A DNA stretch of 11,352 nucleotides from Gemmatimonadota bacterium (GTDB taxonomy: Bacteria; Gemmatimonadota; Gemmatimonadetes; Longimicrobiales; Gaopeijiaceae), in the NCBI GenBank assembly GCA_039589315.1, contig JBDHHQ010000126.1:1-11352 (forward strand), written 5' to 3'. Made by a program: the position numbers and the translations under genes. Below the pieces are notes generated by a model. That model was not told the DNA's origin. It was given only the letters and a program-made list of their open reading frames with translations, and did no database searches. Below, in pieces: positions 1 through 11,352 of the stretch. How positions within the stretch are numbered: position 1 is the stretch's first letter; each line of letters begins with the position of its first letter.

Positions 1-195
1 CCCCGGGTCAAGCGGCTGTTGGACGAAGCGGGAGCGGATCACATGCTCCTCACGGGCGGAGGGATCATCCCAGAGGAGGACATGGAAACGCTGGCGGCCC
101 AGGGCGTGGGCAAGCTGTTCGGGCCGGGTACGTCCACCGGACAAGCGGTGGAATACATCCGGGAGTGGTTCGCCACCCAGGAGCACCTGTTGTGA
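1..195 (+). CDS. Cobalamin (B12)-binding domain of an acyl-CoA (methylmalonyl/isobutyryl-type) mutase, 3' end only (5' truncated by window)
   Basis: Not in the ORF track. Frame 1 translated by hand: PRVKRLLDEAGADHMLLTGGGIIPEEDMETLAAQGVGKLFGPGTSTGQAVEYIREWFATQEHLL* (TGA 193-195). GGGIIPxxDxxxL..GV..xFGPGT is the C-terminal signature of mutase B12-binding domains. Confidence 0.9.
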   Translation, partial: PRVKRLLDEAGADHMLLTGGGIIPEEDMETLAAQGVGKLFGPGTSTGQAVEYIREWFATQEHLL

Positions 196-212
196 GGGCC
201 GTGCCGCGATGA
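192..212 (+). other. Putative 6-aa linker mini-ORF (MRAVPR), overlapping the upstream stop (GTGA 192-195) and the downstream start (ATGA 209-212)
   Basis: gtg agg gcc gtg ccg cga tga read directly from the sequence. Translation is unproven. Confidence 0.3.
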
Positions 213-1864
213 CGGAAGTGACCACCGAGGGGAAGGCGGGCCAGACCACAGAGGAGCGTGACACCCGCTTGGGTGCGCTCGCGTCGGAGCTGGGCGAGCT
301 CCGGGCAGGCCTCCGGCTCGGCGGTGGGTCCAAGCGCATCCAGCGCCAGCACGATCAGGGCAAGCTCACGGCCCGGGAACGCGTCGAGCGGCTCCTGGAC
401 CCTGGGGCGCCGTGGGTGGAGGTGGGCCTGCTCGTGGCTCACGACCTCTACGACGGGCAGGCCCCAGGCGCCGGGGTCGTCACCGGGGTCGGTCGGGTGG
501 AGGGTCGGGAGGTCGTGGTCGTGGCCAATGACGCCACGGTCAAGGCGGGGTCGTGGTGGCCCGAGACGATCAAGAAGATCCTGCGGGCGCAGGAGATCGC
601 CATGCGCTGCCGGATCCCCATCGTATACCTGGTGGACTCGGCCGGCGTGAACCTCCCCTACCAGGGGGGCGTCTTCCCGGGTCAGTACGGCGCGGCCCGG
701 ATCTTCTACTACAACTCGGTCATGCGCCGCTACCTGCACGTACCCCAGCTGGCCGCGGTCATGGGGCCGTGCATCGCGGGCGGCGCTTACCTGCCGGCCC
801 TCTCCGACGTGATCCTCATGGTAGAGGGCACCAGCTTCATGGGGCTGGGCGGCCCGAACCTGGTGAAAGGCGCCACCGGTCAGAGCGTGGGCTCGGAGGA
901 GTTGGGCGGCGGGCGCGTCCACACATCCGTCAGCGGCGTGGCCCACTACCTGGTGGAGAACGACGAGGCGTGCCTATTCAAGCTCCGCCAACTCGTGCGG
1001 GAGCTCCCCCGGGAGACGCCGGCGCTGCGGTACGACGGGGAGTGGACGCCTACCACCCGGCCGGTGGAGGATCTCTACGAGCTGCTCCCGCCCGATCACC
1101 GTCAGCCCTACGATACGCACGGTGTGCTGGACGCGATCCTGGACGGAGAGGGGTTGGACGAGTTCCAGCCCGAGTACGCCAAGGAAATGATCTGCGGCAC
1201 GGGTTTCATCCAGGGGATTCCCGTTGGCGTGATCGCCAATGCCCGCGGGATGATCCGTGTATCCGGCGAACGGCCTCGCTTCGGAGGCATCGTCTATACC
1301 GAGAGTGCCGAGAAGGTGGCGTACTTCATCGAGACCATGAACCGCCACCGGACACCGCTGCTGTTCGTACAAGACGTGTCGGGGTTCATGGTGGGGCCCG
1401 AGGCCGAGCACTCGGGCATCATCCGGGCGGGCGCGCGCTTCGTGGAAGCCATGGCCACGGCAACCGTCCCCAAGCTGGTGCTCACGCTGAACCACGCCTC
1501 CGGGGCCGGCTATTACGCCATGGCCGGACAGGGCTTCGATCCCGACTTCATCCTGAGCCTTCCCACGGGCCGCATGGGCGTGATGGAAGGCGAGAGCGCC
1601 GTCATGGCGCTCTTCAGCAGTCAGCTCGACAAGCTCAAGGCCGAGGGGAAGGTGCCGGACGAGGACCTCACGACGCGCATGGACGATGTGCGGGCTGAAT
1701 ACGACCGCCAGCTGGACGCCCGCTTCGCAGCGGCCCGTGGGTTCGTGGACGAGATCGTGCTTCCGGAGGAGCTCAGGGACGCCCTGGGGCTTCTGCTCCG
1801 GGCCTCGCTCCACAATCCGGGCCCCCACATCGGCGCTTTCCACCTGCCATGGGCCCAGGAATGA
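209..1864 (+). CDS. Acyl-CoA carboxylase carboxyltransferase subunit, 3-methylcrotonyl-CoA carboxylase beta (LiuB/MCCB)-like
   Basis: 551 aa. Motifs include RQHDQGKLTARERVERLLDPG, VANDATVKAGSWWPETIKKILRAQEIA, YLVDSAGVNLPYQ, GPCIAGGAYLPALSD, QDVSGFMVG and GAGYYAMAG, typical of MCC-beta-like carboxyltransferases. Confidence 0.93.
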   Translation: MTEVTTEGKAGQTTEERDTRLGALASELGELRAGLRLGGGSKRIQRQHDQGKLTARERVERLLDPGAPWVEVGLLVAHDLYDGQAPGAGVVTGVGRVEGREVVVVANDATVKAGSWWPETIKKILRAQEIAMRCRIPIVYLVDSAGVNLPYQGGVFPGQYGAARIFYYNSVMRRYLHVPQLAAVMGPCIAGGAYLPALSDVILMVEGTSFMGLGGPNLVKGATGQSVGSEELGGGRVHTSVSGVAHYLVENDEACLFKLRQLVRELPRETPALRYDGEWTPTTRPVEDLYELLPPDHRQPYDTHGVLDAILDGEGLDEFQPEYAKEMICGTGFIQGIPVGVIANARGMIRVSGERPRFGGIVYTESAEKVAYFIETMNRHRTPLLFVQDVSGFMVGPEAEHSGIIRAGARFVEAMATATVPKLVLTLNHASGAGYYAMAGQGFDPDFILSLPTGRMGVMEGESAVMALFSSQLDKLKAEGKVPDEDLTTRMDDVRAEYDRQLDARFAAARGFVDEIVLPEELRDALGLLLRASLHNPGPHIGAFHLPWAQE

Positions 1865-1990
1865 TGGCGACCGGAGCGCGACGGCCACCGCGGTTCACGT
1901 GACAGAAACCGACGACGCATTGACGACGACGCCGTGACCGACCGTATGCATCTGACCATCGACAACTGCTCTTCGAAGAGACGCCCGTGA
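1861..1990 (+). other. Chain of three mutually overlapping mini-ORFs: 1861-1902 (MMATGARRPPRFT), 1899-1937 (MTETDDALTTTP), 1934-1990 (MTDRMHLTIDNCSSKRRP)
   Basis: ATGA at 1861 and GTGA at 1899, 1934 and 1987. Each ORF is open from one junction to the next (checked codon by codon). Translation is unproven. Confidence 0.35.
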
Positions 1991-3372
1991 CCGACACCGC
2001 AGACGACGCCATCCGCATCGCCAGCGGACAGGGCTTCTGGGGCGACGACCTGGAGGCGCCGGTTCGCCAGGTTGAACGGGGCCCCATCGACTACCTGATG
2101 ATGGACTACCTGGCTGAAGTGACCATGTCCATCATGCAGAAGCAGCGGGCCAGGGATCCGTCGGCCGGCTACGCTCGGGACTTCGTGCCGCTGATGAAGC
2201 GCATCCTCCCGGCGTGCGTCGAGCGGGATATCCGCGTCGTCACCAACGCCGGAGGAGTGAACCCCCGCGGGTGCGCCGAGGCACTGGTCGAGGCCGGTCG
2301 GGAGGTGGGGGTGGGTGGGAAGGCCCGCGTGGCCATGGTCACGGGCGACGACCTCATGGATCGTCTGGACGACCTCCTGGCGGCGGGTCACGCCCTCGAG
2401 CACATGGAGACGGGCGAGTCTCTCTCCACGGTCCGCGACCACGTCCAGAGCGCCAACGTCTACATCGGCGGGGCCCCGATCGTGGAAGCCCTCCGGCAGG
2501 ACGCCCGGGTGGTGGTCACGGGGCGGTCCACCGACACGGCGCTCACCTACGGTCCCATGATGCACGCTTTCGGGTGGAGCCCCGACGACTACGACCGGCT
2601 GGCGGCCGGGGTGGTGGCGGGCCACATCAACGAGTGCGGGGCCCAGTGTTCGGGCGGGAACTGCCTGATCGACTGGTGGGACATCCCGGACATGGCCGAC
2701 GTGGGCTTCCCCATCATCGAGGCCCAGCCGTCCGGCGAGTTCGTCGTCACCAAGCACGAGGGGACGGGAGGCCGGGTGTCCCGGGCCACCGTCACCGAGC
2801 AGATCGTCTACGAGATGGGCGATCCGGCTACATACATCACTCCCGACGTGATCGCCGACTTCACGACGATCCACCTGGCGGAGGAGGGCTCCGACCGCGT
2901 ACGGGTTCACGGGGTGAAGGGCAGGGGACCCACGCCCTTCCTGAAGGTGTCCATCGCCTACTCCAGCGGCTGGAAGGCCGTGGGCACCCTGGTCTACACC
3001 TGGCCCGACGCGGCGGCCAAGGCCCGCCGGGCCGACGAGATCCTCCGTGAGCGCATGGACCGGCTGGGCCTCATGTTCGACACGATCCGCACGGAGCTCG
3101 TGGGGTGGGACTCGACCCACGGTCCGCTGGTGGGTGAGCCGCCGGCCGACCTGCCCGAGGTGCAGCTCCGGATCGGCGTGCGTGGGTCGGACCGGGCGTC
3201 GGTGGAGCGCTTCACCCGGGAGATCGCGCCCCTGGTGCTGACCGGCCCACCCTCGGTGACGGGCTTCGCGGGGGGCCGGCCCCGGGTGCAGGAGATCATG
3301 GCGTACTGGCCAGCGCTCATCGACCGCACTGTCGTGGAGCCCCACCTGAGCGTCGAGGTGTTCGACGTATGA
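1987..3372 (+). CDS. Acyclic terpene utilization AtuA family (DUF1446) protein, N-terminal large module
   Basis: 461 aa, GTG start. IRIASGQGFWGD, DYLMMDYLAEVTM, VVTNAGGVNP, SANVYIG, VVTGRSTD, AGHINECGAQCSGGN and EQIVYEMGDPATYITPDV are AtuA-family motifs. Confidence 0.92.
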   Translation: MTDTADDAIRIASGQGFWGDDLEAPVRQVERGPIDYLMMDYLAEVTMSIMQKQRARDPSAGYARDFVPLMKRILPACVERDIRVVTNAGGVNPRGCAEALVEAGREVGVGGKARVAMVTGDDLMDRLDDLLAAGHALEHMETGESLSTVRDHVQSANVYIGGAPIVEALRQDARVVVTGRSTDTALTYGPMMHAFGWSPDDYDRLAAGVVAGHINECGAQCSGGNCLIDWWDIPDMADVGFPIIEAQPSGEFVVTKHEGTGGRVSRATVTEQIVYEMGDPATYITPDVIADFTTIHLAEEGSDRVRVHGVKGRGPTPFLKVSIAYSSGWKAVGTLVYTWPDAAAKARRADEILRERMDRLGLMFDTIRTELVGWDSTHGPLVGEPPADLPEVQLRIGVRGSDRASVERFTREIAPLVLTGPPSVTGFAGGRPRVQEIMAYWPALIDRTVVEPHLSVEVFDV

Positions 3373-3460
3373 GGCGCAGGATCCGAGCAGATCGAGGCGT
3401 TCGCGGCACAAGGCGCGGGACCGAAGCAGGTCGAGGCGTTCGCGGCGTGGGGCGGATCGC
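3352..3460 (+). repeat. Degenerate 39-bp tandem repeat (about 3 copies) starting inside the 3' end of the AtuA-family gene
   Basis: gtcgaggtgttcgacgtatgaggcgcagga at 3352, atcgaggcgttcgcggcacaaggcgcggga at 3391, gtcgaggcgttcgcggcgtggggcggatcg at 3430. The period is exactly 39. Confidence 0.85.
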
Positions 3461-3521
3461 CCGAGCCCGGCCTTCGAACGAGACGCGGAATGACCGAACA
3501 TCCGGGAGGACGACCTCGTGA
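3369..3521 (+). other. Putative 50-aa Arg-rich linker mini-ORF (MRRRIRADRGVRGTRRGTEAGRGVRGVGRIARARPSNETRNDRTSGRTTS)
   Basis: Starts at ATGA 3369-3372 (overlapping the AtuA stop) and ends at GTGA 3518-3521 (overlapping the next start), with no internal stop. Confidence 0.3.
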
Positions 3522-3892
3522 CCCGTATCCAGCTCGTCCACCTGGCCCACGCCCGATCGGGCGACAAAGGAGACACGGCCAACGTGGGCGTCATCGCCTA
3601 CGATCCCGACCACTACGCGCTCCTCCGCAACGCGCTGACCCCCGAGCGGGTGAAGGCGCACTTCGGCGACATGGTCCTGGGCGAGGTGGAGCGCTTCGAG
3701 CTTCCCAACCTGGTGGCGCTGAACTTTCTCCTGCACGGCGCGCTGGACGGCGGAGGAACCGTTTCGCTGATGACCGACGCCCAGGGGAAGGTCTTCAGCA
3801 CTGCGCTCCTTCGCATGGAGATCGAGGTGCCGGACGACGTCGCAGAGGCGGTGACCGGCAAGGGTCGACTGCCCGAAGGGGGTGCGGCGTGA
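3518..3892 (+). CDS. Small AtuA-related protein (stand-alone AtuA C-terminal module)
   Basis: 124 aa, GTG start, strong SD GGGAGGA at 3504-3510. AHARSGDKGDTANVGVIA, VERFELPNLVALNFLLHGALDGGG and DAQGK match the C-terminal domain of full-length AtuA proteins. Confidence 0.9.
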   Translation: MTRIQLVHLAHARSGDKGDTANVGVIAYDPDHYALLRNALTPERVKAHFGDMVLGEVERFELPNLVALNFLLHGALDGGGTVSLMTDAQGKVFSTALLRMEIEVPDDVAEAVTGKGRLPEGGAA

Positions 3893-4656
3893 GCGAGATC
3901 CTCCTCTACTCGGTGGACCTGGGCGTCGCGACGCTGGTCATGAACCGGCCCGAGAAGCGGAACGCACTGAACCGGGAGCTGGTGGCCGCGTTGGCCGATG
4001 CCCTCGAGCGTGCGGCGGCCGACGACGAGGTCCGCGTCGTGATGCTGCGCGGCGCGGGGAGCGACTTCTGCTCCGGGGCCGATCTGGCCGAGCTGGAGCG
4101 CATCGCCGAGATGGGGCCTGAAGCCAGCCTCGCGGACGCCTCGGTCCTGGGCGATCTCTTCGTCGCCATGCGCCGGCACCCCAAGCCCATCGTGGCCGCG
4201 GTGCACGGCCGTGCCCTGGCGGGCGGGGCGGGGCTGGCCACCGCGTGCGACCTGGTGGTGGCCTCGGAGGACGCAGAGCTCGGCTACCCCGAGGTGCACC
4301 TCGGCTTCGTGCCAGCCATGGTCATGGCGATCCTCCGCCGCAAGGTCGGAGAGTCCCGGGCGTTCGAGCTGGCCACCCGAGGCGACCGGATCCCGGCTCC
4401 GGACGCCAGGGACCTGGGCCTGGTGAACCGCGTCTTTCCGGCCGACCGGTTCGACGACGAGGCCGCGTCGTACGCGGCGGCGCTGGCCGCCCGCCCTACC
4501 TCGGCGGTTCAGCTGTCCAAGCGGCTCCTCTACGGGCTCGACGGCGTGGGCTTCGAGGACGGCATCGCCCGGGGTGCCGAGGTGAACGCCATCGCACGGC
4601 TCACCGAAGCCTGCCGCGAGGGTGTGCGCCGCTTCCTTCAGCGTACGCGTTCCTGA
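3889..4656 (+). CDS. Enoyl-CoA hydratase/crotonase family protein, methylglutaconyl-CoA hydratase (LiuC)-like
   Basis: True start is probably GTG 3889 (GTGA overlap with the upstream stop), giving 255 aa: MSEILLYSVDLGVATLVMNRPEKRNALN...FCSGADL...AVHGRALAGGAGLATACD...YPEVHLG. The first catalytic Glu position is Gly and the second is retained, as in bacterial LiuC-type enzymes. Confidence 0.9.
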   Translation: MSEILLYSVDLGVATLVMNRPEKRNALNRELVAALADALERAAADDEVRVVMLRGAGSDFCSGADLAELERIAEMGPEASLADASVLGDLFVAMRRHPKPIVAAVHGRALAGGAGLATACDLVVASEDAELGYPEVHLGFVPAMVMAILRRKVGESRAFELATRGDRIPAPDARDLGLVNRVFPADRFDDEAASYAAALAARPTSAVQLSKRLLYGLDGVGFEDGIARGAEVNAIARLTEACREGVRRFLQRTRS

Positions 4657-4665
4657 GGACGGCTC

Positions 4666-4974
4666 TTGGTCTTCCGTGCTCGCCGTGGCCGGGACCACTA
4701 CCTGACCTGGAAGGTCCGCCTGTTCGCCATCGGCGCCACATTGGGCCTCGCAGGTATGTTCCTGGAAATCCGCGAGCTGATCTGGGCAGCCATCGTGGTT
4801 CTGGTGGTGGGGTTTCTGTTGCGGTTCTTCCAGGTGTCCGGCTCGGGGTCCGCCGCCGACGCGCGGGCTGAAGACGACGGCGGGAGATCGGAGGACCGCA
4901 GCGTGCGACCGGGAGGGAACGAGGTGGCGTCGGAGGACGAGCCGAGCCGGCCGGACCATCCCGGATCGTCGTAG
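4666..4974 (+). CDS. Small hypothetical membrane protein (two predicted TM helices plus acidic low-complexity tail)
   Basis: TTG start with GAGGA SD overlapping the upstream stop. Hydrophobic segments LFAIGATLGLAGMFL and LIWAAIVVLVVGFLLRFF, with GC-rich third codon positions. Confidence 0.7.
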   Translation: MVFRARRGRDHYLTWKVRLFAIGATLGLAGMFLEIRELIWAAIVVLVVGFLLRFFQVSGSGSAADARAEDDGGRSEDRSVRPGGNEVASEDEPSRPDHPGSS

Positions 4975-4978
4975 CGGC

Positions 4979-5062
4979 CACCGTCACGTCCCACCGGCCT
5001 TTTCCGCACCGTCACGTCCCACCGGCCTTCCCGCGCCCGCGTCCCACCGGCCTTCCCGCGCC
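4979..5062. repeat. Degenerate 25-28 bp C-rich tandem repeat, 3 copies, core CGTCCCACCGGCCTT
   Basis: Identical 15-bp core at 4987-5001, 5015-5029 and 5040-5054. Confidence 0.9.
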
Positions 5063-5122
5063 GGCATCTCGCTCGTCCCTTTCTGACCTTCCCTTGCCCC
5101 TGCCACCTCCCTTGATTCGGGA

Positions 5123-6694
5123 GTGGGCAACCCAAGCCTGATCCCTGGGCCGGACCGAGCTGCACGTCCGGCCCTGGAAGACGCCCGACGCGTCCTGCTG
5201 GAGCGGTTCGGCTATCCCGGCTTCCGACCGGGTCAGGCCGAGCTGGTGTGTGCGGTGCTCGCGGGCCGGGACGCCCTGGGCATCCTGCCCACGGGCGGCG
5301 GTAAGACCGTGTGCTACCAGGTGCCGGCCCTGCTTCTGGGTGGCGTCACGGTGGTCGTGAGCCCCCTGATCTCGCTCATGGACGACCAGGTCGGGCGGGC
5401 GCGGCAGGTGGGCCTCCGGGCGGCAGCCCTCACGTCCACGCTCCCCCGGGCGAAGCTGCGCGATCTCCTCGGCCAGTGCCGCCGCGGGCAGCTCGACCTG
5501 ATTCTCGTGGCACCCGAGCGGTTCGAGGTGCCCTCGTTCCTCACGGTCCTGAAGTCCCTGCCCGTGAGCCTGGTCGCGGTGGACGAGGCCCACTGCATCA
5601 GCGAGTGGGGTCACGACTTTCGGCCTTCCTACCGTCGCTTCGGTGCCGTGTGCCGGTCCCTGGGCTGTCCGGTTCTGGCCCTCACCGCTACCGCCACACC
5701 GCCGGTACGGGACGACATCACCCGGGTGCTGCGCCTGCGTCGGCCGGTCCGAGTGGTCGGGTCGTTCGATCGCCCCAACCTCTCGTGGGCGGTGATGGGG
5801 GCGGGGAGCCACGGCGAGAAGGTGGCGGCGATCTGGACCCACCTCGAGGACTGCTCGGAGCCGGCAATCGTATACGCGAGCACCCGGCGCACCGTCGAGG
5901 CCGTGCGTCGCTCGTTGGCCGGCAGCGGGCTCCCCGCGGCGGCCTATCACGCCGGGCTGGACCCCGACGAGCGGCACCGGGTCCAGACCGGCTTCATGGC
6001 CGGGGCGATCAGGATCGTGGTAGCGACCAACGCATTCGGGATGGGCGTCGACAAGGCCGACGTGCGCACCGTCCTCCACTACCAGCTCTCCGGCTCGCTG
6101 GAGGGATACTACCAGGAGGCCGGACGGGCCGGGCGTGACGGCGCTCCGGCGACCTGCCTTGCCCTGCACGGACCCCACGACGGGCGGCTTCACCGGGCGT
6201 TCGTGGACCGGAGCCGGCCACCGGCTCGGTTCCTGGACCGTGTGTGGCGGGCTCTCCGCAAGCAGTGGCACCGCACCCGACGTCCAGTGTCGGTCCAGAC
6301 CCTCGACGCCGAGCTTCGCAGGGGGGCCACGGCCGAGCGGGTGGAGGATGCCCTCACTGCCCTGGCCGGCGAGGGCGTCGTCGCAGCCGTCCACGCCGAG
6401 CCACCCGCCGTTCCCGCAGACGGCGGGGCCGTTGTCGGGCCCCGTCGGAGTGGCCGGGAAGGAACTCCGCTGTCGTCTTCCGGGTCTTTATGCTGGGCTC
6501 CGGTTCCCGGGGCCGACCCACCCGATCTGAAGCGGGCACGGCGCCTGCGACGTGCCGCTCTGAGGAAGGTGGAGGCCGTAAGCCGCTACGCTGCCACGCG
6601 CCAATGTCGCCGACGGGAGATCCTGGAGTATTTCGGAGAGCGAGGCGCCGCGGTCCGGTGTGGCCGCTGTGATCGCTGCGCTCCCCGCCGGTGA
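5123..6694 (+). CDS. recQ: RecQ family ATP-dependent DNA helicase (short form, no HRDC)
   Basis: FGYPGFRPGQ (motif 0), LPTGGGKTVCYQVP, VVSPLISLMDDQV, AVDEAHCISEWGHDFRPSY, LTATAT, VATNAFGMGVDK, YYQEAGRAGRDG, and Zn ligands CRRREILEYFGE...CGRCDRC. The exact start is uncertain. Confidence 0.93.
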   Translation: MGNPSLIPGPDRAARPALEDARRVLLERFGYPGFRPGQAELVCAVLAGRDALGILPTGGGKTVCYQVPALLLGGVTVVVSPLISLMDDQVGRARQVGLRAAALTSTLPRAKLRDLLGQCRRGQLDLILVAPERFEVPSFLTVLKSLPVSLVAVDEAHCISEWGHDFRPSYRRFGAVCRSLGCPVLALTATATPPVRDDITRVLRLRRPVRVVGSFDRPNLSWAVMGAGSHGEKVAAIWTHLEDCSEPAIVYASTRRTVEAVRRSLAGSGLPAAAYHAGLDPDERHRVQTGFMAGAIRIVVATNAFGMGVDKADVRTVLHYQLSGSLEGYYQEAGRAGRDGAPATCLALHGPHDGRLHRAFVDRSRPPARFLDRVWRALRKQWHRTRRPVSVQTLDAELRRGATAERVEDALTALAGEGVVAAVHAEPPAVPADGGAVVGPRRSGREGTPLSSSGSLCWAPVPGADPPDLKRARRLRRAALRKVEAVSRYAATRQCRRREILEYFGERGAAVRCGRCDRCAPRR

Positions 6695-7944
6695 GCGTCC
6701 AGCCTGACACGATCACGAAGAGTCAAATGGACCGATATCTCTCGAAGGACCACGTCGCCCTCCGGAACCGCGTACGCGAGTTCGCCCTGGAGTCCATCGT
6801 TCCGGTCGCTACCGAGCTCGACGAGCGGTCCGAGTTTCCGTGGGAGACCGTCAAGGCCATGGGCGAGATGGGGTTGCTGGGCGTTCCCGTCCCCCGGGAG
6901 CTGGGCGGCATGGGCCTCGACTACCTCAGCTACATCCTGGTCGTGGAGGAGCTGGCCAAGTACGACGCCAGCCACGCCATCACGGTCTCGGCGCACACCA
7001 CCCTCGGATCCGGACCCATCCTGGACTTCGGCACCGAGGAGCAAAGGGAGCGCTTCATTCCGCCCTTGGCGTCGGGCAAGGTGCTGGGAGGATTCGGCCT
7101 CACCGAGCCGGATGCCGGCTCTGACGCCGGCAGCAGCCGAACGCGGGCGATCCGCGAGAACGGCTGCTACCGGCTGAACGGCGCCAAGATCTTCATCACC
7201 CACGCCGGGGTGGGAGAGATCTTCACGGTCACCGCCGTCACCGATCCCGACGCCGGCTCCAAGGGCATCAGCAGCTTCGTCGTTTGCAAGCCCACCGTCG
7301 ACCTGGAGCGCGCGAGCCAGGTGGGGTTCGGCCACCTCGACGACCTGCCCTTCGTGCCTGGTGTCAAAGCGGGCAAGAAGGAAGACAAGATGGGTTGGCG
7401 GGCGTCCGATACGCGCGAGCTGCTCCTGGAAGACGTCGTGGTGCCCGAGAACAGCCGCCTGGGCGACGAGGGACAGGGCTTCATCAACTTCATGAAGACC
7501 CTGGACGCGGGGCGAATCGGCATCGCGGCGCTTTCCCTGGGGCTCGCCGAAGGCGCGGTGGACGTGGCCCTCCGCTACGTGAACGAACGGGAGCAGTTCG
7601 GCAAGAAGATCTGGGAGTTCCAGAGCGTCCAGTTTCCGCTGGCGGACCTGGCCACCGAGATCGAGGCCGGGCGACACCTGACGTATCACGCGGCGTGGCT
7701 CAGGGACCAGGGCTGCCCGTACGGCAAGGAAGCCGCCATGGCCAAGCTCTTCTGCTCCGAGCTGTCGATGAAGGCCACGGCGACGGCCATTCAGGTGCTG
7801 GGCGGGGCAGGCTACACGTCCGACTATCCGGTGGAGCGCATGTTCCGGGACGCCAAGGTCTGCGAGATCGGCGAGGGCACCAACGAGATCCAGCGCATGG
7901 TCATCGGACGGCACATGGTGAGGGAGGCCTTGCAGGAGGCCTGA
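6691..7944 (+). CDS. Acyl-CoA dehydrogenase (short/branched-chain type)
   Basis: FGLTEPDAGSDA, LNGAKIFITHA, KKEDKMGWRASDT, LDAGRIGIAA, REQFGKKI, QVLGGAGYTSDYPVERMFRDAKVCEIGEGTNEIQR. GTG start overlaps the recQ stop (GTGA); alternative ATG at 6727. Confidence 0.95.
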   Translation: MSVQPDTITKSQMDRYLSKDHVALRNRVREFALESIVPVATELDERSEFPWETVKAMGEMGLLGVPVPRELGGMGLDYLSYILVVEELAKYDASHAITVSAHTTLGSGPILDFGTEEQRERFIPPLASGKVLGGFGLTEPDAGSDAGSSRTRAIRENGCYRLNGAKIFITHAGVGEIFTVTAVTDPDAGSKGISSFVVCKPTVDLERASQVGFGHLDDLPFVPGVKAGKKEDKMGWRASDTRELLLEDVVVPENSRLGDEGQGFINFMKTLDAGRIGIAALSLGLAEGAVDVALRYVNEREQFGKKIWEFQSVQFPLADLATEIEAGRHLTYHAAWLRDQGCPYGKEAAMAKLFCSELSMKATATAIQVLGGAGYTSDYPVERMFRDAKVCEIGEGTNEIQRMVIGRHMVREALQEA

Positions 7945-7962
7945 GCCGCTCAATGGCCGGAT

Positions 7963-7981
7963 CCGGATGCACCCCATCCGG
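7963..7981 (+). terminator. GC-rich hairpin after the acyl-CoA dehydrogenase stop (possible weak terminator or stabilising stem)
   Basis: CCGGATG-caccc-CATCCGG, 7-bp stem, followed by only TT (no real U-tract). Confidence 0.3.
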
Positions 7982-8082
7982 TTGGACGCAGCTCTCGTGG
8001 ATCGATCGAGCGCCTGCGGCGTATACGTAAGCGCGACGGACACGGCCGAACCCGCGAGGAGGGCAGGCCGCGCCCGTCGCCG

Positions 8083-8298
8083 CATAATCAGCTGTGTCTA
8101 AACCAGGGGCCTGAAGCCCCCTGCCGCCCAAGTGACAGCCGACCTCCGCCCCGGAGTCTGCCAGGCCCGGAGGGGAGACGGGGTCGAATGGGAAGCGGTC
8201 GACCGCGGCCGGTCACACGCCCACGAGCGTGAATGGCCGGCACGGTGCCGTCGGGACAGGGGACCAGGTCGCGCACCCCCGAGAAGGGGACCAGCGTC
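8083..8298 (+). promoter_or_regulatory. Putative -10 element (CATAAT 8083-8088) and ~200-nt structured 5' leader of the RNase E/G gene
   Basis: Hairpins at 8104-8123, 8140-8186, 8208-8241 and 8277-8289, the last covering the SD. No good -35 was seen. Confidence 0.45.
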
Positions 8299-9828
8299 TT
8301 GAAGAGGCAGATTCTGATCAGCGCCACGACGCACGAGTCGTGGGTGGCGCTGGTCGAAAACGGAGAATTAGCGGAGCTCATGTTCGACCGGCCCGACCAG
8401 GGCCGGCTCGTGGGCGACATCTTTCTGGGTCGCGTAGAAGCCGTGTTACCCGGCATCCAGGCGGCCTTCGTCGATATCGGGACCGAGAAGGCGGGGTTCC
8501 TGCACGCCTCGGACCTGGAGCGGACCGAGGACGACGACGAGGATGACGGGGGCAACGGTCGTCGGAGTCGAAAGTATCCGCCGATCCAGGACAGGGTCCA
8601 GAAGGGCCAGCAGATCCTGGTGCAGGCGACCAAGGAGCCCATCAGCACCAAGGGGCCGCGCCTCACCGCGGAGGTCTCCCTCCCAGGTCGGTTCCTGGTC
8701 TACATGCCCTTCTCGTCACATGTGGGCGTGAGCCGCAAGATCGACGACCGCTCCGAGCGGGGCCGGCTGCGACAGTTGGCGCGGTCGATCCTTCCCGAGG
8801 ACAGCGGGGGGATCATCGTCCGCACGGTTGGGGAAGAGGTGACCGAGGCCACGCTGGCCAAGGAGTTCCAGCGCCTTCACGCGAATTGGAAGAAGATCCA
8901 GAACCGGTCCCGTTCGATGAAGGCACCGTCGGTGGTTCATCGGGAGGCCAAGCTCATCTCCGGCGTCATCCGAGACCTGTTCAGCGACAAGTTCGACGCG
9001 CTGATCATCGACTCCAGGGCCATCTTCAACGAAGTCAGCCAGTACGTGCAGTCGGTGGACCCGGACCTCATGGACCGGGTCAAGTACTACGACGGCTCCG
9101 AGCCCCTCTTCGACAAGCACAACATCGGAGAGGAGATTCGCGGTCTCTTCGAGCGCAGGGTCGAGCTGGCGTCGGGAGGCTCCATCGTGATCGAGCCCAC
9201 GGAGGCTCTGGTCTCCATCGACGTCAATACCGGGCGCTTCACGGGCAAAGGCAAGAACAAGGATCCCGAGAAGACGATCCTGAAGACCAACCTCGACGCT
9301 GCCCGGGAAGTGGCTCGGCAGCTTCGCCTGCGCGACGTCGGCGGCATCATCGTCTGCGACTTCATCGACATGGAGTCCCAACAGAATCGGGACCGAGTCC
9401 TGCACGAGCTCCGGACGCACCTGGGACGGGACCGGGCCCGGACCCGCGCCTTTCAGGTCTCCGACCTCGGACTCGTGGAGATGACGCGGCAGCGGGTCCG
9501 ACCGTCTCTCGCCCATTCCCTCACGGAACCGTGCACCTGCTGCGGCGGCAGGGGGCGCGTGGACACGCCGCCGACGGTCGTGCGGCGGATCGAGCGTGCC
9601 CTCCGCAGGGCCTCGGCCTCCAGGAACGAGACTACGCTGGTGATCCGCATCCACCCCGAGGTAGCGCTGTACATCCTGGAGGAAGAGGCGGACTTCCTCC
9701 GGCGCATGGGCAAGTGGACCAAACTCTCCCTGGACATCCGCGACGATCCCCTCATGCGCCAGGACGAGTTCCGCCTGCTGTCCGGTCCGGCCGAGACCGA
9801 CGTGACCGGTCGGTACAGCAGCCAGTAG
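8299..9828 (+). CDS. Rne/Rng family ribonuclease (RNase G-length, catalytic domain only)
   Basis: Likely start is TTG 8299 (MKRQILIS..., SD AAGGGGA 8284-8290), 509 aa. S1 domain GDIFLGRVEAVLPGIQAAFVDIGTEKAGFLH, KEPISTKGPRLT, EALVSIDVNTG, RQLRLRDVGGIIVCDFIDM, GLVEMTRQR, and Zn-link CTCCGGRG. No long C-terminal degradosome scaffold. Confidence 0.95.
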   Translation: MKRQILISATTHESWVALVENGELAELMFDRPDQGRLVGDIFLGRVEAVLPGIQAAFVDIGTEKAGFLHASDLERTEDDDEDDGGNGRRSRKYPPIQDRVQKGQQILVQATKEPISTKGPRLTAEVSLPGRFLVYMPFSSHVGVSRKIDDRSERGRLRQLARSILPEDSGGIIVRTVGEEVTEATLAKEFQRLHANWKKIQNRSRSMKAPSVVHREAKLISGVIRDLFSDKFDALIIDSRAIFNEVSQYVQSVDPDLMDRVKYYDGSEPLFDKHNIGEEIRGLFERRVELASGGSIVIEPTEALVSIDVNTGRFTGKGKNKDPEKTILKTNLDAAREVARQLRLRDVGGIIVCDFIDMESQQNRDRVLHELRTHLGRDRARTRAFQVSDLGLVEMTRQRVRPSLAHSLTEPCTCCGGRGRVDTPPTVVRRIERALRRASASRNETTLVIRIHPEVALYILEEEADFLRRMGKWTKLSLDIRDDPLMRQDEFRLLSGPAETDVTGRYSSQ

Positions 9829-9926
9829 GCCTCCATCCGCGACCGACCTCCTCGCAGCCGTCTCGCGTGCCCCGTGGGGAGCTTACGGACCGCGTTCGGC
9901 ACCTCACGACTTGCATGGGTCCATCC

Positions 9927-9962
9927 TTGACATGCATCTTCCCTCGCCGTAAGTAAGATAAT
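9927..9962 (+). promoter_or_regulatory. Putative sigma70-type promoter for the TonB-dependent receptor gene
   Basis: Perfect TTGACA at 9927-9932 and an AT-rich TAAGTAAGATAAT at 9950-9962. The 17-bp spacing gives an imperfect TAAGTA; the better TAAGAT/GATAAT lie at non-canonical spacing. Confidence 0.45.
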
Positions 9963-10172
9963 TACCAAGTCAGGAGCACGTCAGATCTTGCAGGGGCCGC
10001 GACGCCCCAAGGAGGTGTGGGCTGACCCGTCTATCGTTCGATCCCCCACATACAAGCACAATTTCCCAGCTGCACGCATAGTGTCCGGGAGAACACTCTC
10101 GCGTGTGGCGTCCGCTGTGGAACGTGTCCGCAGTGGAACCGTTTCTCTCCGACCTTTTTGGAGGCCAGAGAA

Positions 10173-11352
10173 ATGAGACGTCCATCGTACGCTCTTCTAC
10201 CCAAAGGGCTTGCGCGCCTCGCGTTTGCGGGGGTTTTCGCGTTCGCCCTGGGGTGGGCCCCTTCGGCGGCTTCGGCGCAGACCGGAACCATCGTCGGCAC
10301 GGTGTCGGAATCCGGAGGCCTGCGCACGCTCGAAAGCACGCAGGTGTTTATCCCGGGGACCGGAATCGGCACGCTGACGAACGCCGCCGGAAGGTACCTG
10401 CTCCTGAACGTCCCGGTCGGTCAGGTGACCGTTCGGGCCGAGCTCGTCGGCTACCGCGCCTCCGAGGTCACCGTGACGGTGGCCGCGGACGAGTCCGTGG
10501 TCGCCGACATCTCCTTGGCTCAGACGGCCATCGCCCTCGACGAGGTGGTGGTGACGGGAGCCGGCCAGGCAACGGAGATCCGGAAGCTCGGAAACACCAT
10601 CGCCAGCATCAACTCCGAGGATCTGGAACAGCAGCCGGTGACGACGCTGTCCGAGATCCTCACCGGCCGTGAGCCCGGCCTGGTGGGTCTGCCCAGCTCC
10701 GGTTTGACCGGCGAGGGCGCCCAGTTCCGGATCCGCGGCTCCGCCAGCCTCTCGCAGTCCAACGAGCCCATCATCTACGTGGACGGCGTCCGCGTGGACC
10801 GGGCCGGCGGGTTCGGCCAGGGCGTGGACGCCGGCACGGCCGGTGAGCCCTCGCGTCTGGACGACATCAATCCCGACGCCATCGAGCGGGTCGAGATCCT
10901 CAAGGGCGCGGCGGCGGCGACGCTGTACGGGTCCGAGGCGTCCAACGGCGTCATCCAGATCTTCACCAAGTCCGGGCGGACCGGTGAGCCGAGCTGGAAC
11001 TACACAGGCGAGTACGGCCTGGTGAACTACCCCGGCGACGCTTTCCTGCCCAACACGGGCTTCGCCACGACGCAGGAGCAGCTGGGCAACATGCAGCAGC
11101 TCTACAACGCGCCGGGTCTGCAGCTGTACGAGCCCCTCGCGGTGCCCATCGTGAAGGACTGGTCCTACGAGACCGGCCAGTTCACGACGCACTCCCTGTC
11201 GGTGAACGGTGGGACGTCGGCGGTGACCTACTTCCTGAGTGGCCGTATCCAGTACGAGGACGGCCCGTTCGGCGGTACGGACCGTTGCGTCGTCGGTTGC
11301 GCCGAGGACACGAACCAGAAGGTCCAGGGATCTGCGACCATCAACGTGTTCC
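10173..11352 (+). CDS. SusC/RagA family TonB-dependent outer-membrane receptor, 5' part (runs off window)
   Basis: Not in the ORF track (no stop in window). ATG 10173 with SD GGAGG 10160-10164. Signal peptide ending APSAASA/QTGTIVGTV, an N-terminal carboxypeptidase-regulatory-like domain, TonB-box-like LDEVVVTG, and plug motifs RIRGSASLSQSNEPIIYVDGVRVD and LDDINPDAIERVEILKGAAAATLYGSEASNGVIQIFTKSG. Confidence 0.93.
   Translation, partial: MRRPSYALLPKGLARLAFAGVFAFALGWAPSAASAQTGTIVGTVSESGGLRTLESTQVFIPGTGIGTLTNAAGRYLLLNVPVGQVTVRAELVGYRASEVTVTVAADESVVADISLAQTAIALDEVVVTGAGQATEIRKLGNTIASINSEDLEQQPVTTLSEILTGREPGLVGLPSSGLTGEGAQFRIRGSASLSQSNEPIIYVDGVRVDRAGGFGQGVDAGTAGEPSRLDDINPDAIERVEILKGAAAATLYGSEASNGVIQIFTKSGRTGEPSWNYTGEYGLVNYPGDAFLPNTGFATTQEQLGNMQQLYNAPGLQLYEPLAVPIVKDWSYETGQFTTHSLSVNGGTSAVTYFLSGRIQYEDGPFGGTDRCVVGCAEDTNQKVQGSATINVF

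Follow-up and report, generated by a model that had tools for sequence, protein, structure and literature searches.

Genes of an operon that are spaced apart are presumed to start independently, since reinitiation by terminating ribosomes reportedly fails beyond ~20-38 nucleotides (nt), a range by which it is nearly lost in Huber et al. 2023 (PMC10666635). In integrons, the short open reading frames (ORFs) of attC sites, together with ORF-11, ORF-17 and ORF-18 of attI1, encode non-functional peptides and ferry ribosomes over a spacer by termination-reinitiation (PMC8876359). MIRUs (mycobacterial interspersed repetitive units; Supply et al. 1997, as summarised in PMC12548453), a dispersed and apparently mobile repeat family, contain an ORF that is linked to the gene downstream through a -4 overlap. 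Among mycobacterial small ORFs and upstream ORFs (uORFs), linkage through RTGA (ATGA or GTGA) is over-represented, at 23/220 vs 32/1000 (Shell et al. 2015, PMC4633059). Here we describe an 11,352-nt stretch of Gemmatimonadota DNA (contig JBDHHQ010000126.1 of assembly GCA_039589315.1, positions 1 to 11,352; hereafter, the window) in which the acyl-CoA mutase, carboxyltransferase (CT), AtuA and enoyl-CoA hydratase genes of one operon are joined by a chain of RTGA-linked mini-ORFs, which probably act as weakly selected, sequence-independent translational-coupling spacers in place of lost direct overlaps.

The relay would, by analogy, work like MIRUs and integron attC ORFs, yet it is a member of neither. 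Like MIRUs, these spacers hold internal ORFs coupled downstream by a -4 overlap and stand at start codons where relatives, which mostly overlap directly, have no insertion; the upstream genes here are intact. Unlike MIRUs (PMC12548453), they are single-copy, vary between gaps and between sister genomes, and stem partly from local duplication. As in integrons, where amino-acid changes matter little, the peptides are unconstrained. The integron ORFs, however, sit in recombination sites with hairpins, ORF-11 has its own Shine-Dalgarno (SD) sequence, and an exact -4 geometry is unnecessary (PMC8876359), whereas the spacers described here lack an integron or a conserved hairpin. No integrase was found among the 11 window proteins scanned, and the gaps show neither an inverted repeat nor a stable fold; no attC model was run. 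RTGA-coupled small ORFs of mycobacteria and Sinorhizobium resemble the mini-ORFs in that the linkage can outlast the peptide sequence, but those small ORFs begin at the 5' ends of transcripts or at ribosome-binding sites of their own and are coupled at one end, whereas the mini-ORFs here are internal, coupled at both ends and chained (PMC4633059, PMC13285730). Direct -4 overlaps share the junction motif; the accessible part of Huber et al. 2023 treats annotated pairs and contains no discussion of hidden ORFs that bridge positive gaps (PMC10666635). Intergenic small ORFs near either neighbour have been noted in a study whose accessible text contains no test of both-end relays (PMC11188072), and a preprint, as far as accessible, detects no association of overlap with subunits of complexes other than through proximity (10.64898/2026.09.10.750558). 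Our literature search, which left most subscription papers and supplements outside its reach, found no genome-wide test of both-end-coupled intercistronic mini-ORFs.

Walking the frames by script from position 192 recovers each of the nine RTGA junctions, and the five mini-ORFs, that a sequence-only reading of this DNA had claimed: GTGA at 192, ATGA at 209 and 1861, GTGA at 1899, 1934 and 1987, ATGA at 3369, and GTGA at 3518 and 3889. The chain junctions have the -4 stop/start overlap expected of termination-reinitiation coupling, and each mini-ORF (6, 13, 12, 18 and 50 amino acids (aa)) starts at the stop of the preceding frame. The large genes are separated by 13 nt (gap 1, mutase to CT), 122 nt (gap 2, CT to the AtuA N-terminal part, atuA-N) and 145 nt (gap 3, atuA-N to the C-terminal part, atuA-C), and the junction at 3889, between atuA-C and the hydratase, is a plain direct -4 overlap. 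The same reading had every gap of the operon bridged, which holds for these three gaps but not for 4656/4666, where an unbridged 9-nt gap in phase 0 separates the hydratase from the next gene; the chain runs no further than the CTGA stop of the hydratase at 4653. At the other side, the operon's 5' end lies beyond the contig edge. Because the mutase gene is cut there, the remaining piece scores below the TIGR00640 cut-off, above which the complete orthologue at locus L031 scores. CT ends with a rare GAA codon (16% of Glu codons) that forms ATGA with the TGA stop, and mini-ORF 2 opens with ATGATG, which provides -4 and -1 starts in one frame.

Relays were then counted throughout the window's genome (G000, 95% complete), a relay being a strict chain from the base before the upstream stop to the called start of the downstream gene in same-strand pairs with true gaps of 5-250 nt. 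Genes were called by a self-trained dicodon model that gives overlaps no bonus and recovers the window's genes. CTGA and TAA/TAG stops served as controls; TTGA stops were excluded from the RTGA-vs-control tests, as were pairs in which an in-frame start might overlap. Relays follow 57/224 RTGA, 14/94 TTGA, 49/410 CTGA and 48/407 TAA/TAG stops, so that RTGA exceeds the controls (97/817) with an odds ratio (OR) of 2.5 (p 2e-6). This excess is robust to other SD weights, persists after length stratification (Mantel-Haenszel OR 2.3, p 1e-5), remains when the window's contig is removed (54/221) and is seen when only closed downstream frames are considered (16/106 RTGA vs 23/385 controls). Comparison with shuffled gaps, the check proposed by the sequence-only reading, and with random indels was dropped as too lenient, since the control stops also exceeded these nulls (CTGA 47 vs 31, TAA/TAG 48 vs 35); the claimed excess thus stands against empirical controls rather than against shuffles. 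It arises from RTGA at both ends together with phase, not from added frame openness: with RTGA at both ends, the ratio of phase 1 to phase 0 is 56:32, vs 102:135 in controls (p 0.001). Adjacent relayed pairs are clustered (4/13 vs 0.84, p 0.008), a figure that includes the window's own two pairs and was therefore not counted as evidence, and the comparison for neighbouring direct overlaps gave 23/71 vs 47/210 (p 0.11).

Against this background, no chain other than this locus has three relayed gaps among the 2904 gene pairs; per genome, the observed relay rate would lead one to expect 0.010 such chains, and the control rate 0.001. Scanning very many genomes would sometimes yield such a three-gap chain by chance; the locus by itself is weak proof, and the case depends on the genome-wide and comparative tests. 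The sequence-only reading had placed its signal in the bridging of all three gaps. Where the downstream start carries RTGA, gaps of 5-30 nt are relayed in 13/17 RTGA-stop pairs vs 27/47 controls (57%), and gap 1 is therefore uninformative; at 100-170 nt the counts are 13/27 vs 11/83 (13%), which gives a likelihood ratio of ~3.6 each for gaps 2 and 3, so that the signal survives in these two alone.

In the locus bearing the orthologous operon of the sister genome (L002, from G001; L031 has the same junctions, with 94% amino-acid identity), all three gaps are bridged again, gap 1 from TTGA. Gap 2 is 145 nt long there, is hardly alignable with the 122 nt of the window, and is crossed by one 50-codon ORF instead of three; gap 3 retains both its 145 nt and its 50-codon frame. 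AtuA matches occur in 55/61 genomes searched. Among distinct orthologous junctions of loci L001-L110 and L251-L330 (duplicate junction sequences and L043 left out), 348/415 are direct or within 4 nt, 248 of these being -4 overlaps; 54 are true gaps, 12 open from CTG and one lacks a start. The gaps of the window thus occupy sites where relatives mostly overlap directly, which supports the idea of coupling maintained after intergenic expansion; L251 (88% AtuA identity), for instance, has a direct overlap at gap 3. The true gaps are relayed after 15/25 RTGA, 5/9 TTGA, 5/12 CTGA and 0/8 TAA/TAG stops (RTGA 15/25 vs CTGA and TAA/TAG 5/20, p 0.034). GTA-TGA ends 28 atuA-N orthologues, although GTA makes up 4.5% of Val codons in the window's genome; ATG 3369 thus represents the start of the ancestral atuA-C, still in place.

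The tails of mutase, CT and AtuA-N reach, or come close to, the median length found in the others, both in the window and in nearly all orthologues that are bridged. This bears on the possibility that bridges are frameshifted tails of upstream genes, or assembly errors, to which we give very little credence. One such relic is known elsewhere, at the C37 junction of the window's genome, whose sister counterpart gained a TAG at a T-run, and CTGA pseudo-bridges are fairly common (5/12) among the operon's orthologues. Tail relics, however, predict near-equal CTGA and RTGA bridging (within genes, the base before TGA is C in 39% and A or G in 53%), whereas CTGA in the window's genome is at the TAA/TAG level; the layout, moreover, is repeated in the sister genome. 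At this locus, the intact C-termini rule out a tail relic.

The peptides themselves show no sign of constraint, in agreement with the proposal that the spacer ORFs are independent of peptide sequence. Neither purifying selection nor coding-like codon use was found in them: substitutions fall 39/42/39 by codon position over nine bridged pairs shared with the sister genome, the mini-ORF coding score resembles that of non-coding DNA (-0.15 vs +0.13 per codon), and gap 2 peptides of the two genomes are unrelated. That the mini-ORFs are genuine small-protein genes with functional products is thus very improbable, and largely refuted. In favour of such genes, gap 3 has an unchanged length and 83% identity to the sister genome, above the 75% of atuA third positions, and real small membrane genes probably occupy this junction in other lineages. 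Mini-ORF 5, however, has no Pfam match, differs from its L031 counterpart of equal length and frame at 17/47 residues, and lies in a gap whose substitutions fall 10/7/7 by codon position.

The gaps differ in sequence features. Gap 1 has an SD-like GAGG at 194-197, overlapping the stop. No SD was found for atuA-N by the SD scan, and 1987 is the sole in-frame atuA-N start ahead of the conserved core; within gap 2 the atuA start recurs, CCGTGACCGAC standing both at 1932 and at 1985, and the start of mini-ORF 3 shares with it 7/10 bases after GTGA (1899). In gap 3, a strong SD precedes atuA-C, and three tandem copies of a 39-nt unit run across the atuA-N stop; the unit being a multiple of 3, phase is kept. 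No promoter-like site was found in the gaps. That the spacers are a MIRU-like mobile repeat inserting at start codons is barely credible. The geometry is the same and each of the steps (38, 35 and 53 nt) leaves a remainder of 2 on division by 3, but the gaps are unlike each other and without an Rfam match, and no unit common to the gaps or dispersed in the window's genome was found, other genomes not having been searched for copies. By blastn, gaps 2 and 3 have no dispersed copies, the best non-self matches being <=22 nt, so that a mobile repeat is refuted within this genome, to which the search was confined.

Linker translation might instead pay off by shielding the mRNA from Rho or RNases, or by unfolding the downstream start, rather than by handing on one and the same ribosome. 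Rho loads onto RNA that is not translated, and the unfolding of RNA is among the recognised models of coupling (PMC12548453); TTTT, furthermore, occurs in 0/40 bridged gaps of at least 40 nt vs 10-12% of unbridged ones. Such cover, however, would not require the exact -4 geometry at the downstream start, and no terminator-like site was found in the gaps. None of the gaps folds better than shuffles, and gap 2 folds worse (z +2.2). This alternative is improbable.

On balance, we lean slightly towards a history in which DNA added at ancestral overlaps was preferentially retained when an RTGA-to-RTGA frame passed terminating ribosomes on. The ancestral junctions would have been direct stop/start overlaps, at or just 3' of which DNA was gained, some of it through local duplication, as is shown for gap 3 and likely for gap 2. 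The upstream genes would remain full length with their RTGA, so that a terminating ribosome could still reinitiate there, and any added length that brings the frame onto an RTGA at the true downstream start, in one step (gap = 1 mod 3) or in several, would deliver ribosomes to it. Such frame-joining insertions would be kept preferentially, whereas other lengths would be borne chiefly in front of genes able to start on an SD of their own, and the peptides would be by-products. The layout, the ancestral overlaps, the intact upstream genes, the statistical excess and the missing peptide constraint are observed; we infer that ribosomes translate the mini-ORFs, that the excess is due to selection and that the present locus is among the selected cases. 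Gap 2 is where the relay would be most important, because atuA-N has no SD; it would matter less at gap 3, because of its strong SD, and at gap 1.

Comparison with the sister genome (576/654 junctions with shared starts) offers an example of such a history. Near 159516 (+) of C1, the window's genome has a direct -4 overlap, where the sister carries a 47-nt insertion forming a perfect ATGA-to-ATGA bridge. Eight relays changed in length between the two, of which seven keep frame and four of them an RTGA start (two by another step number). The bases after the two RTGAs are also alike in phase 1 (3.67 vs 3.01 of 10, p 0.001), not in phase 0 (2.81 vs 2.67), in the window's genome, which fits start duplications filtered by length; this resemblance was not replicated in 12 junctions of the sister genome or 18 outside the genus.

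In a 1.46-Mb sample of the sister genome, the excess recurs (13/57 vs 24/239, p 0.014), although this set is not independent of the window's genome. A pool outside the genus, adding 151/174 loci (dropping 23: two duplicates from the sister genome, six of other or unassigned taxa and 15 with <60% GC), gives 30/144 vs 54/561 (OR 2.5, locus bootstrap 1.4-3.9, p 5e-4). There, the excess sits in gaps of <=40 nt (22/44 vs 21/169), whereas gaps of 41-160 nt are enriched in the window's genome (37/117 vs 53/428) and in its sister (10/35 vs 10/118). It is restricted to families of junctions whose members are mostly direct overlaps (17/46 vs 8/68, p 0.002), as expected if relays replace lost overlaps, and is missing from mostly spaced families (7/61 vs 30/316, p 0.64). 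No claim is based on the unpublished genomes G037 and G056.

The strongest case against selected coupling is chance combined with neutral history, in which the RTGAs at the two ends are remnants of a former overlap or of a start duplication, GC-rich frames stay open, downstream genes use their own SDs and the relay is unused or irrelevant. We regard this as rather unlikely, though it has to be taken seriously, and a number of results weigh on its side. The excess amounts to ~30 junctions, and roughly half of the relays in the window's genome are expected at the control rate. Gene starts come from a home-made caller. Frames in phase 1 are open in 42/53 cases vs 37/47 and 39/54 in controls, and SDs are at least as frequent at bridged downstream genes as at others. 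Only 4/8 length-changed relays keep the RTGA start, control pseudo-relays keeping 8/19, and the purine before the stop is not preferentially kept (27/31 bridged vs 70/84 unbridged). The atuA frames of the sister genome are also open through gaps 2 and 3, so that longer N-termini are possible there. The L251 gaps upstream of CT and atuA are unbridged, with weak SD-like motifs, as are L006, L102 and L309. Without the window's genome and its sister, the orthologue set falls to 11/21 vs 5/20 (p 0.11); four other genomes alone give 6/32 vs 15/143 (p 0.23), and one junction per family outside the genus gives a median OR of 1.9 (p 0.15). No excess was found outside the genus at 41-160 nt (6/81 vs 28/294), nor a significant one at 5-40 nt in the window's genome and its sister, so that the length class showing enrichment differs between the genus and outside sets. 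The repeats of gaps 2 and 3 and the strong SD at atuA-C are likewise what neutral history would leave. It would, however, give phases 0 and 1 equally, contrary to the ratio observed, and would explain neither the start resemblance restricted to phase 1, which was seen in the window's genome without replication, nor the re-bridging of gap 2 with a different step number. The coupling reading as a whole is partly supported, by the excess and by the re-bridging of gap 2 at another length, but not by long relays outside the genus or by atuA-C, with its own SD.

A broader proposal, which we hold tentatively and at somewhat less than even confidence, is that ordinary, single-copy DNA between the genes of operons is selected for its length mod 3 and for an RTGA at each end, a hidden, peptide-independent relay joining ~1% of same-strand pairs in this genus (~30/2904 in the window's genome). 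Overlaps lost in GC-rich bacteria would generally meet this fate, and MIRUs would be one particular case that exploits it. Should the hidden relays be translated, some spaced pairs would still be coupled, the fitness effect of an intergenic indel would depend on frame, and reported cases of coupling over long distances would need re-reading for bridging ORFs. The test of RTGA vs CTGA and TAA/TAG stops, and of phase 1 vs phase 0, is applicable to any genome. Features of the locus are collected in Table 1.

Table 1. Features of the relay chain and its surroundings (window positions 1..4974)
Feature	Position	Strand	Evidence or remark
Acyl-CoA mutase cobalamin-binding (C-terminal domain) subunit, 3' end, truncated by contig edge	1..195	+	TIGR00640 match
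Mini-ORF 1, 6 aa, GTGA to ATGA, covers 13-nt gap	192..212	+	Script walk; TTGA to ATGA in the same frame in L031
Acyl-CoA carboxylase carboxyltransferase subunit (CT), 551 aa	209..1864	+	Carboxyl_trans
Mini-ORF 2, 13 aa	1861..1902	+	Script walk
Mini-ORF 3, 12 aa	1899..1937	+	Script walk
Mini-ORF 4, 18 aa	1934..1990	+	Script walk
AtuA N-terminal part (atuA-N), 461 aa, final codon rare GTA, then TGA	1987..3372	+	AtuA
Three tandem 39-nt copies across atuA-N stop	3353..3469	+	
Mini-ORF 5, 50 aa	3369..3521	+	Script walk; no Pfam match
Strong Shine-Dalgarno GGGAGGA for atuA-C	3504..3510	+	Also in L031
AtuA ferredoxin-like C-terminal part (atuA-C), 124 aa	3518..3892	+	AtuA_ferredoxin
Enoyl-CoA hydratase, 255 aa, direct -4 overlap with atuA-C	3889..4656	+	ECH_1
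Hydrophobic ORF, 102 aa, TTG start	4666-4974		No Pfam match

Some orthologous junctions have features of their own. Four unbridged RTGA gaps (L025, L057, L076 and L307) open with a hydrophobic ORF. Between atuA-N and atuA-C, a hydrophobic ORF of 54-60 aa runs from the RTGA of the atuA-N stop to a TAG in L025 (2859-3038), L056 (5380-5559), L057 (4736-4918) and L076 (3276-3440). Judged from its sequence, it is probably a real small membrane gene; that of L025 has a weak NCBIfam match, below cut-off. The unbridged CT-to-atuA gaps of L006, L102 and L309 are in phase 0, are 81-156 nt long and have in common a GC-rich hairpin-like motif, perhaps a small repeat element. The AtuA and CT frames of L043 end early inside their matches, possibly through sequencing indels.

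The hydrophobic ORF following the hydratase has counterparts at the same place in L031 (ATG start, gap of 9) and in L251, where it overlaps the hydratase by -4. Local tandem duplication is seemingly frequent in the window; a 25-nt repeat of 3.2 copies, for instance, lies at 4979-5063, upstream of a RecQ-family gene. The stop of a RecQ-family gene may in turn overlap, by GTGA at 6691-6694, a possible acyl-CoA dehydrogenase start, for which our own caller favours ATG 6727. The remaining neighbours are ordinary, namely an RNase E/G family gene (8233-9828) and the beginning of a gene for a TonB-dependent (SusC-like) receptor (10158-11351).

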